Assembly: GCF_051903065.1 (NCBI RefSeq)
Contig: NZ_CP178438.1
Direction: 5' to 3' (one strand)
Source of the DNA: Escherichia coli
Lineage (GTDB): Bacteria > Pseudomonadota > Gammaproteobacteria > Enterobacterales > Enterobacteriaceae
Length of the DNA: 64,000 nt
Position numbers: made by a program. Below, piece after piece: positions 57,001-60,000 of this stretch (within the stretch, counting starts at the first letter, position 1; each line of letters starts with the position of its first letter).

Positions 57001-60000
57001 CGGCTTAGCGCATATGCTTTGCCGTCATCTTTATCTTTGCGTCTCTTGTTGCAACAATATCCGCCGTAAATCCCGCCATTCGGCTTCGTCCATGCTGTCG
57101 GCTGCCAGCCATAAATGTTGCCGTTTACCGCTGTCAGAACGTAAACGCAGCATCATGCCGCTCTTAATCATCCACGGCGCTTTGACGATGCTCCACTCCT
57201 GCCCTTGCCAGCGCAAACGCCCGTCCATCAACAGGCGAATTTCCCCCTGGCGAGCATTAATGCGCCGCTGGCTGCGAACGCAATCAAACACCACCAGCGA
57301 AAGTAACACCATCCATAACGGGGTGTAACTGAGCGGCCAGGGCATGAGTAAAATAACAGCGGCAACCAGCCCGTGGATCAGCAAGGAAAGCCACTGTGCG
57401 CGCCAGGAGACGCGCAGATCAGATTGCCACAGGACCACGTTCCCGGTTCCGTGTCTGGATGAGTCGGACCATCATTTCCAGTTCTGCATCGGCCGGTTTA
57501 CCGTGGTTCATCAGCCAGTTAAACAGATCGGGATCGTCACACTCCAGCAGACGAATAAAGATGCGTTTTTCGTCATCGCTTAAGCTGTCGTACTCATGTT
57601 CGAAAAACGGCATGATTGAAATATCGAGTTCGCGCATACCACGGCGGCATGCCCAATGAATGCGGGCTTTGTTGTTAATGTCCATCTTCTTCCTGTCTCA
57701 CGAAAATCCAGTACCTGGCTATTGTAACGTGTTTTTCGACTTCTTTTGCGGGAATATCAGTAAACACAATCGCGATCGCGAAATTAATTCACAACAATTC
57801 AAGGGCTTCATTTTTTTGGAAGTCGCCTCGCAGAAGGCACAGATCGCGTAGTGAAAGCACTTGCATTGCCTCATAGCTCTTTTACCATTAGTCATTAATA
57901 CGCCGTTAAGCAACTCAGGACTCTATTATGGCTTTTACACCTTTTCCTCCCCGTCAGCCTACGGCGTCTGCCCGTTTACCGCTGACGCTGATAACGCTTG
58001 ATGACTGGGCGCTTGCCACCATTACTGGCGCGGACAGCGAAAAATATATGCAGGGTCAGGTGACAGCAGATGTCAGCCAGATGACAGAAAATCAGCATCT
58101 GCTCGCCGCCCATTGCGACGCCAAAGGTAAAATGTGGAGCAATTTACGTCTGTTCCGCGACGGCGATGGCTTTGCATGGATTGAACGGCGCAGTGTGCGT
58201 GAACCGCAGCTGACTGAACTGAAAAAATATGCGGTGTTCTCTAAAGTGACCATCGCGCCGGACGATGAGCGTGTGCTGCTTGGTGTTGCCGGTTTTCAGG
58301 CGCGCGCCGCGCTGGCAAATATCTTTAGTGAACTGCCTTCGAAAGAAAAACAGGTAGTTAAAGAAGGCGCGACCACTTTGCTATGGTTTGAACACCCTGC
58401 AGAACGTTTCCTGATCGTAACCGATGAAGCCACTGCCAATATGCTGACCGATAAACTGCGCGGTGAAGCGGAACTGAACAATAGCCAACAGTGGCTGGCA
58501 TTAAACATTGAAGCGGGTTTCCCGGTGATTGATGCCGCCAACAGCGGGCAGTTTATCCCACAGGCGACCAACCTCCAGGCGCTGGGCGGCATTAGCTTTA
58601 AAAAAGGCTGCTATACCGGACAAGAGATGGTGGCGCGAGCTAAATTCCGTGGTGCCAACAAACGCGCGCTCTGGTTGCTGACGGGTAGCGCCAGCCGACT
58701 GCCGGAAGCCGGTGAAGACTTAGAGCTGAAAATGGGCGAGAACTGGCGTCGTACCGGAACCGTGCTGGCTGCGGTAAAACTGGAAGATGGTCAGGTCGTG
58801 GTACAGGTCGTCATGAATAACGATATGGAACCGGACAGCATCTTCCGCGTGCGTGACGATGCGAATACATTGCATATCGAGCCGCTGCCGTATTCACTCG
58901 AAGAGTAAATCTCTGTGTCGCATCATGCATTTATCGCCTGATGCGACAAGGGTGTGTCTTTTCAGGCCTACAAAGGCACACCCATTACGCCTGCCCAATA
59001 TATAAATAGATCGCCAGAAAGTGGCACACGCTGCCGCCGAGCACAAAGCCGTGCCAGATGGCATGGTTGTAGGGAATGCGTTTGCAGACGTAGAAAATCA
59101 CCCCGAGCGAGTAAACCACGCCGCCTACAGCCAGTAAGGTAACGCTGCCCGCCGCAAGCTTAATTGCCATTTCATAAATCACCACCAGCGACAGCCAGCC
59201 CATCGCCAGATAGGTCACCAGAGATAAAATTTTGAATCGGTGCGCGATGGTCAGTTTGAACAGAATCCCCAGCAATGCCAGGCTCCAGATAACAATCATC
59301 AACCCGCGCGCTAACGGAGAATCCAGCCCCACCAGCAAAAACGGCGTGTAGGTTCCGGCAATCAATAGGTAAATAGCGCAATGGTCAAATTTCTTCAGCC
59401 ACATTTTTGCCCGTTGATGAGGAATGGCGTGATAGAGCGTCGAAGCGAGGAACAGCAGGATCATACTGCCGCCATAGAGGCTGTAACTGGTTATCGCTGT
59501 GGCGCTGGCATTGAGATCCACCGCCTGAACCAGTAGCAACACCAGCCCAACGATACCAAACACCAACCCAATGCCGTGACTGACGCTGTTGGCAATTTCC
59601 TCTGCCAGCGAATATCCCTGCTTAATGAGGGGCTTCTGAACCATAACTTACTCCGGAGAAACGTACACGCACATGTATACCTCTCCAGCGTAACTGAGAA
59701 TAGTTCCAGTGAACACCTGTTAGCTAAAATAAATTCTGATTTGGGACTAATCTCCTAAAAATCATGAAATTAAATGCAAAATTTCAACTAACAGGCGTGA
59801 GTTCAATTTAAAGGCATTTAAATTCAATCACATAAAACTGTGTCTGACCGGGATAGATGTCGGCAATGACCTTTTTCAGTTCTAGCAGGGTCATATTCTC
59901 CTGCTCTGCATGTTTTTCCGTCAGCGTATCCAGCGTTACGGTTGAGGTTGCGGTGACTTCAATCGTGCAAAAATAACCGTCATCTTCAAAACGCCCGACA

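Follow-up and report, generated by a model that had tools for sequence, protein, structure and literature searches.

Is the overlapping gene pair sdhE-ygfX of Escherichia coli a toxin-antitoxin (TA) module, as the alternative names CptB and CptA have it, or is it a housekeeping operon for an enzyme-maturation factor and a membrane partner, and does the overlap of the two reading frames play a role in their expression? We addressed these questions in a stretch of 64,000 nucleotides (nt) of E. coli chromosomal DNA (assembly GCF_051903065.1, contig NZ_CP178438.1), referred to as the window, in which both genes lie on the minus strand: sdhE (ygfY, cptB) at 57419-57685 and ygfX (cptA) at 57031-57438. 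The locus is the classical E. coli sdhE-ygfX (ygfY-ygfX, cptB-cptA) operon, which is already known, and there is nothing new in finding it. New here, though of modest added value, are the wide conservation of the 20-nt overlap, in 80 of 80 species, signs of a ygfX initiation site embedded in sdhE, a modelled split PH-like fold for YgfX, and genomic data that speak against the TA label. We consider it probable that sdhE-ygfX belongs to the core genome of E. coli as a vertically inherited, bicistronic operon with a housekeeping role, which provides SdhE and a membrane partner by coupled expression.

The reading frame of sdhE runs from an ATG (57685-57683) to a TGA (57421-57419) and encodes 88 amino acids, while that of ygfX runs from a GTG (57438-57436) to a TAA (57033-57031) and encodes an inner-membrane protein of 135 amino acids. 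The initial annotation had described two intact open reading frames (ORFs) of these lengths that overlap by 20 nt on the same strand, as well as their identities (the flavinylation factor SdhE/YgfY and YgfX/CptA, a membrane protein with two transmembrane helices) and an RGxxE motif in SdhE. The ORF calls confirm the arrangement and the intactness of both genes, and the identities are agreed upon by Pfam, NCBIfam, RefSeq and AlphaFold2 (AF2); that description had omitted the minus strand of the pair and the GTG start of ygfX. In matching E. coli sequence, the boundaries of the RefSeq coding sequence (CDS) calls for fldB, ygfX, sdhE and ygfZ are identical. SdhE serves SdhA and FrdA as the flavin adenine dinucleotide (FAD) assembly factor, a small soluble chaperone whose RGxxE surface binds these flavoprotein subunits and which promotes covalent FAD attachment, thereby activating succinate dehydrogenase (SDH) as well as fumarate reductase (FRD). 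The protein encoded in the window matches Pfam Sdh5 (PF03937; E = 5e-26, 90.8 bits against a cut-off of 27), with the domain ending at residue 79, the NCBIfam equivalog NF008130 (198.4 bits against a cut-off of 120) and solved E. coli chains (PDB 1x6i, E = 8e-59; 6c12, E = 4e-58; 6b58, E = 2e-51), which include SdhA-SdhE and FrdA-SdhE complexes. Its RGxxE motif is RGMRE (R15 G16 M17 R18 E19; codons at 57629-57643, minus strand), and W11, C13, R14, R15, G16, M17, E19, L20 and D21 are invariant in an alignment of eight SdhE sequences. YgfX matches Pfam Cpta_toxin (PF07254, formerly DUF1434) over residues 2-131 of 135 (E = 1e-49, 168.5 bits against 27.3), as do all 40 members of the YgfX alignment. 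These Pfam and NCBIfam matches show sdhE and ygfX to be real genes and not chance ORFs. Two antisense ORFs opposite the pair, at 57344-57583 (plus strand, 79 amino acids) and 57396-57659 (plus strand, 87 amino acids), have no support as genes. Mutation of ygfY leaves E. coli viable but devoid of SDH activity and unable to grow on succinate (PMC5293155).

The dual-coding segment, as given by both ORFs, occupies 57419-57438 (minus strand). The ygfX frame is +1 relative to sdhE, and the TGA of sdhE falls within the ygfX codons Ser6-Asp7 (TCT GAT). For SdhE, the segment comprises part of R83 followed by G-P-V-A-I and the stop, which form a tail past the Sdh5 domain; for YgfX, it comprises residues 1-7 (MVLWQSD), the first beta-strand of a modelled PH-like domain. 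Owing to this placement in the SdhE tail and in YgfX strand 1, both frames tolerate the overlap and the sequence is frozen. Moreover, the GTG at 57438 is the only ATG, GTG or TTG codon upstream of the conserved YgfX N-terminus, and the 20-nt overlap is therefore unavoidable. A genome scan with the SdhE alignment covered 80 species from about 25 genera, all of them Enterobacteriaceae, and more distant contexts were obtained by tracing YgfX-family representatives to their encoding contigs. A PF07254 gene directly follows sdhE in all 80 species, and in each of them the two frames share precisely 20 nt, ygfX starting with GTG and sdhE stopping at TGA. The initial annotation had singled out the presence of the overlap across genera as a check, with absence from close relatives as the result that would speak against it; the overlap was found in every species of the scan. 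Among distant YgfX proteins, 22-48% identical to that of E. coli (Leminorella, Mixta, and contigs from metagenomes and sequencing runs), the overlaps measure 20, 20, 20, 29, 26, 14 and 19 nt, and two high-GC (guanine plus cytosine) contigs outside the usual synteny have overlaps of 29 nt and of 23 or 8 nt. Relatives that do not have the E. coli GTG codon have their start shifted by a few codons, with the overlap kept.

Several irregularities were noticed in the sampled sequences. In some Citrobacter, Kluyvera and Pluralibacter (L018-L028, L035-L045 and others, at about 2682-2706) the ygfX frame is open farther upstream, where an ATG or TTG would give an overlap of 62-86 nt; these upstream codons are not conserved across species, while the conserved GTG is present in all, and they are a trap for automatic start-codon calling. 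In Kluyvera genomosp. 3 YDC799 (L064, 2748-3170) ygfX is broken by two 1-nt deletions relative to K. georgiana, each in a run of five G. We rejected a pseudogene in this species, as deletions placed in such runs most likely represent homopolymer sequencing errors and not decay. Assemblies from metagenomes and sequencing runs also contain E. coli-like SdhE-YgfX fusions of 207-217 amino acids (P0003, P0004, P0006, P0007, P0009 and P0013), with junctions corresponding to 57419-57500 of the window. The 217-residue fusions are as expected from a 1-nt deletion, the junction position differs in nearly every protein read, and each cluster has one or two members. In view of such scattered singleton junctions, we rejected a programmed frameshift and attribute the fusions to sporadic deletions or sequencing errors.

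Conservation at the nucleotide level extends beyond the overlap itself. Across the 80 species, the entropy at third codon positions of sdhE averages 1.16 bit over codons 2-77. For codons 83-88, which serve both frames, it is 0.12 bit, as dual coding would lead one to expect. Codons 78-82 precede the GTG and belong to SdhE alone, yet their mean is 0.28 bit, and the lowest value of any other five-codon window is 0.72. These codons (ACA CGG AAC CGG GAA; 57440-57452, minus strand) form a putative translation-initiation region for ygfX. Arg79 is encoded by the rare codon CGG in 80/80 species, and CGG accounts for 151 of the 154 junction Arg codons, compared with 46 of the 527 other Arg codons in sdhE. 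The conserved ACGGAAY places a GGAA, at positions -12 to -9 (57450-57447), 8-12 nt before the GTG of ygfX, and a GGGAA lies at positions -6 to -2 (57444-57440). At the 5' side of sdhE, entropy likewise falls just upstream of the ATG, where an AGGAAG read from the sequence (57689-57694, minus strand) serves as Shine-Dalgarno motif 3 nt 5' of the start codon. The pair thus has a downstream start and a predicted Shine-Dalgarno motif inside the upstream gene, both conserved past coding constraint, as is characteristic of coupled pairs. Taken together, this pattern suggests that the GGAA within the sdhE codons is a Shine-Dalgarno-type site for ygfX, and that ygfX expression is coupled to sdhE translation. 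Initiation of ygfX would then take place at the GTG 20 nt inside sdhE, served by the GGAA-type motif in codons 79-82, and ribosomes translating sdhE would control access to the ygfX start. This gives a testable picture of sdhE/ygfX co-expression, in which rare CGG codons of sdhE harbour the putative initiation site.

The same data bear on the view that the overlap arose by evolutionary accident and does nothing for expression, ygfX being translated independently and the conservation reflecting dual-coding constraint only. Two reading frames within 20 nt do predict low variation by themselves. A local RNA hairpin predicted at the ygfX start is also in keeping with an accident, since its E. coli fold is no better than that of shuffled sequences (z = -0.86) and it is not conserved: the inner stem is disrupted in Buttiauxella- and Cedecea-type sequences, and we accordingly rejected a conserved hairpin masking the start. 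However, synonymous-site conservation reaches about 15 nt upstream of the GTG, in sequence that codes for SdhE only and where the rare CGG is fixed in all 80 species, and overlaps of 14-29 nt have been kept in lineages with 22-37% YgfX identity, even with a moved start codon. We therefore regard an accidental overlap as very improbable.

The distribution of the locus is that of a core gene pair. Of 5426 complete E. coli genomes, 5425 contain the 1-kb region, each at a single place and with 96-100% identity, and sdhE-ygfX is intact in 25 of 25 rows sampled across the ranking of these genomes. One complete E. coli genome has no match to the locus at all. The allele of the window (57031-57685) is at least 99% identical in 194 of the 5425 genomes, the others being 95-99% identical. 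In a published survey, CptA_toxin reached a presence of at least 80% in each of the E. coli sequence types examined (PMC10790755). Synteny of ygfZ, sdhE-ygfX and fldB-xerD-dsbC-recJ reaches Mixta and other Enterobacterales and is usual in distant contigs. Only 13 of 72,556 plasmid records match the locus, and these are mostly of multi-Mb size. The PLSDB matches H11-H13, H19 and H21-H23 are records of 4-5.4 Mb that carry the locus and are evidently mislabelled chromosomes; a mislabelled chromosome may also explain why one place in the collection of E. coli genomes is labelled 'plasmid'. The phage collection gave two matches, neither of which is a real phage genome. PADLOC returned no match for the pair, and membership in a defence system was rejected on this basis. 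Hence, when sdhE-ygfX was tested for the behaviour of the accessory genome, that is, patchy presence, multiple copies or location on plasmids, prophages or islands, it did not show this behaviour, being all but missing from plasmids and phages. The ratio of nonsynonymous to synonymous divergence (dN/dS) is about 0.10 for ygfX and about 0.03 for sdhE, values that are rough because dS (about 1.8) is near saturation; they indicate that both genes are under purifying selection.

One distant context links the pair to SDH. A metagenome contig of 70% GC (L092, 1-2947) has the order sdhA-sdhB-MAPEG-sdhE-ygfX, with an overlap of 29 nt, and lolC-, lolD- and comEC-like genes (so called for their Pfam domains) come next; the pair thus closes a cluster of succinate dehydrogenase genes.

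What kind of protein YgfX may be was approached with an AF2 model based on the 40-sequence alignment (predicted local distance difference test, pLDDT, 95.5). The modelled chain consists of a strand at residues 2-8, helices at 12-31 and 36-62, six strands within 65-112 and a C-terminal helix at 118-134; the strand at 2-8 is present in both structure models. The two helices near the N-terminus are predicted to be transmembrane (pLDDT >94). Helix 1 (57346-57405, minus strand) is assigned from AF2/DSSP and its hydrophobic sequence, and helix 2, also from AF2/DSSP, continues into a cytoplasmic extension (57253-57333, minus strand). The predicted cytoplasmic domain at residues 63-134 (57037-57252, minus strand) has six beta-strands and the C-terminal helix and is completed by strand 2-8, giving a seven-stranded antiparallel beta-sandwich closed by a C-terminal alpha-helix, as in the PH-like superfold. 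As far as the model goes, the best description of YgfX is thus a PH-like domain on the cytoplasmic side into which a membrane hairpin of two helices is inserted. The basic residues RSQRRINAR that follow helix 2 imply, by the positive-inside rule, that the C-terminal side is cytoplasmic. W34, in the short PWPLSY loop before helix 2, is invariant in a 13-sequence YgfX alignment, and D114 is at least 90% conserved in the 40-sequence alignment. A loop Trp and a cytoplasmic Asp were reportedly found by McNeil in 2013 to be essential in Serratia YgfX, and we take W34 and D114 to be the residues that were mutated. Searches for solved-structure relatives of YgfX with the single sequence and with the 40-sequence profile found none, and YgfX has no profile match to the Pfam bPH families; what we propose from the model is a PH-like fold, not membership in a bPH family. 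Two long repeat proteins, P0250 (397 amino acids) and P0251 (410 amino acids), gave repeated matches to YgfX residues 63-117 through the W-rich motifs DGRYRWDGQAWQ and EHWNGSKWSIVKSP, similar to DGRLRWQGQEWSIVKAP. We did not retain them as relatives, judging the resemblance of these W-rich repeats to be chance or a convergent beta-hairpin. With the split PH-like domain, YgfX gains a concrete and testable picture.

Could the pair nevertheless be a bona fide type IV TA module (CptA/CptB), in which YgfX blocks FtsZ and MreB polymerisation, SdhE counteracts it, and the overlap keeps the antitoxin in excess? Two small overlapping genes, of which the putative antitoxin comes first, fit such a module, as does the Pfam family name, 'Membrane-bound toxin component of toxin-antitoxin system'. 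E. coli YgfX is reported, in the work of Masuda from 2012 that is said to have named CptA and CptB, to be toxic and to cause lemon-shaped cells, with partial rescue by SdhE. An Acinetobacter homologue is toxic in E. coli as well, being neutralised only when the antitoxin CptB is strongly pre-induced (PMC8132199). Published tests disagree, though, since in Shewanella YgfX showed no toxin behaviour and YgfY gave no rescue, co-expression worsens growth, and a ygfYX double mutant has the same degree of defect as a mutant in ygfY only, so that deleting both genes does not rescue the ygfY defect. Toxin and antitoxin of a type IV system, by definition, do not interact directly. Contrary to this definition, SdhE and YgfX of Serratia do interact, and yet no TA phenotype was detected there (PMC3985639). 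In addition, the putative antitoxin is an enzyme-maturation factor proven structurally and genetically, the E. coli ygfY mutant is viable, a symbiont with a reduced genome retains ygfX with no sdhE beside it, and the locus is a single-copy, syntenic part of the core genome, off plasmids and phages and without a PADLOC match. A patchy, multi-copy distribution on mobile elements is a common hallmark of TA systems and not a strict definition. Weighing all this, we hold a TA module to be improbable, and the growth and shape defects seen on YgfX overproduction most likely stem from overexpressing a membrane protein that multimerises and not from a designed toxin activity. Of the initial proposal of a 'CptAB toxin-antitoxin-like pair', then, the arrangement and the naming stand, but the TA reading is not supported by the genomic tests, given a core, single-copy, syntenic and non-mobile locus under purifying selection. 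This adds genomic evidence (including linkage to sdhAB in one lineage) to an open dispute on CptA/CptB, and it is of consequence because the toxin label lives on in TA catalogues and in the name of the Pfam family. A more serious rival, though still rather unlikely in our estimation, is that YgfX has a membrane function of its own that is unrelated to flavinylation, for instance in the organisation of the membrane, the cell envelope or the division site through its PH-like domain, with the operon shared for co-expression or by accident. YgfX diverges two to three times faster than SdhE (between Mixta and E. coli, SdhE is 81% identical and YgfX 35%), it was recovered in a YibN-SPA membrane pull-down, and cell-division proteins were reportedly among its putative partners in the 2013 work of McNeil. 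In Serratia, ygfX affects prodigiosin transcription (PMC5042078). YgfX-family genes also occur without an adjacent sdhE, both in Ca. Symbiodolus clandestinus and on the contig L094. Against a separate function stand the fact that ygfX adjoins and overlaps sdhE in each of the sampled Enterobacteriaceae species, the recurrence of pair and overlap after sdhAB in the distant 70% GC contig, and the reported YgfX-SdhE interaction (PMC5042078, PMC3985639).

The housekeeping operon with coupled expression, which we favour over these alternatives, agrees with the co-transcription of sdhE and ygfX in Serratia and the interaction of YgfX with SdhE (PMC5042078, PMC3985639). Several points weigh against it. 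The coupling of ygfX to sdhE translation is drawn from sequence conservation, an effect of YgfX on SDH/FRD flavinylation is inferred, and the PH-like fold is that of a predicted structure, for which a Foldseek search of the model against the PDB gave nothing significant. In Serratia, swimming was affected by deletion of sdhE but not of ygfX (PMC5042078), and in Shewanella a YgfX-YgfY interaction was not detected. The toxicity reported for the E. coli and Acinetobacter proteins and the roughness of the dN/dS values have to be counted here too. Finally, Ca. Symbiodolus clandestinus (L010 and L011, 2501-2944) has an intact ygfX of 147 amino acids that lies 82 nt from ygfZ with no sdhE adjacent, its neighbours on the other side being an L-aspartate-oxidase-like gene and rpoE-rseA; this organism is an insect symbiont with an eroded genome of 1.4-1.6 Mb and an incomplete tricarboxylic acid cycle. 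On L094, a contig of 2.3 kb that contains no Sdh5 gene, a distant PF07254 gene (1322-1759) lies 32 nt past a beta-ketoacyl synthase gene. In view of such ygfX-family genes without adjacent sdhE, YgfX may function independently of SdhE.

As for what the membrane partner in this operon might do, such an inner-membrane protein, with its PH-like domain split by the membrane hairpin and with multimerisation and SdhE binding reported, would act as a low-abundance anchored partner that keeps or places SdhE, or the client of SdhE, where complex II assembles. Going further, we tentatively propose, as a possibility short of even likelihood, that YgfX is not a toxin but a membrane-anchored 'split PH-like' adaptor dedicated to complex II biogenesis, which tethers or gates SdhE or SdhE-bound SdhA/FrdA at the inner membrane and whose dose is kept far below that of SdhE by the overlap, the GTG start and the embedded initiation site. 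If this is true, the family name 'CptA toxin' is a misannotation that has been propagated through databases.

The surroundings of the pair contain few other signals. The neighbours are recJ-dsbC-xerD, fldB, ygfZ, trhA, yqfB and bglA. After fldB, RNA folding predicts a stem-loop (TGACGGC...GCCGTCA with a U-rich tail; 56998-57039, plus strand) with a free energy of -22.6 kcal/mol and z = -5.05 against shuffles, which was overlooked by a simple terminator scan and whose tail overlaps the stop codon of ygfX. It is probably the intrinsic terminator of the convergent fldB, and it may act in both directions and also end the sdhE-ygfX transcript. A consensus scan upstream of sdhE found no sigma-70 promoter, a negative that is uninformative. 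The Rfam scan of the region gave only a sub-threshold RT-4 match inside ygfZ (57984-58089, plus strand; 25.4 bits, E = 0.29, where the gathering score is 73.5), which we took as chance, and a known RNA element in the region was thus rejected.

Compared with known systems, the locus of the window shows no difference of substance from sdhE-ygfX of E. coli K-12, with which it shares position, flanks and CDS boundaries. The sdhEygfX operon of Serratia sp. ATCC 39006 is alike in gene order, co-transcription and an SdhE-interacting membrane protein YgfX, whereas its regulation by FlhDC and RsmA and its prodigiosin phenotype are specific to Serratia. Type IV TA systems (CbtA/CbeA, that is YeeV/YeeU, and AbiE) likewise consist of two small co-transcribed genes, and an FtsZ/MreB toxin phenotype has been reported. 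Modules of the CbtA/CbeA type are patchily distributed and multi-copy and reside on prophage-like islands, while sdhE-ygfX is a core locus present in one copy, and its 'antitoxin' serves in enzyme maturation. With membrane-anchored bacterial PH (bPH) proteins, the YgfX model shares a seven-stranded sandwich, a C-terminal helix and two N-terminal transmembrane helices, but its membrane hairpin appears to sit between strands 1 and 2 and not ahead of the whole domain. SdhE, in turn, shares with the Sdh5/SDHAF2/SdhE family (PF03937; 1x6i, 6c12 and 6b58) the RGxxE motif, a length of about 88 residues and a full-length match to the family models as well as to the E. coli protein of known structure. 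It differs in its last six residues (83-88), which extend past the Pfam domain and whose codons are shared with ygfX, a trait that belongs to the gene arrangement in Enterobacterales and not to the family.

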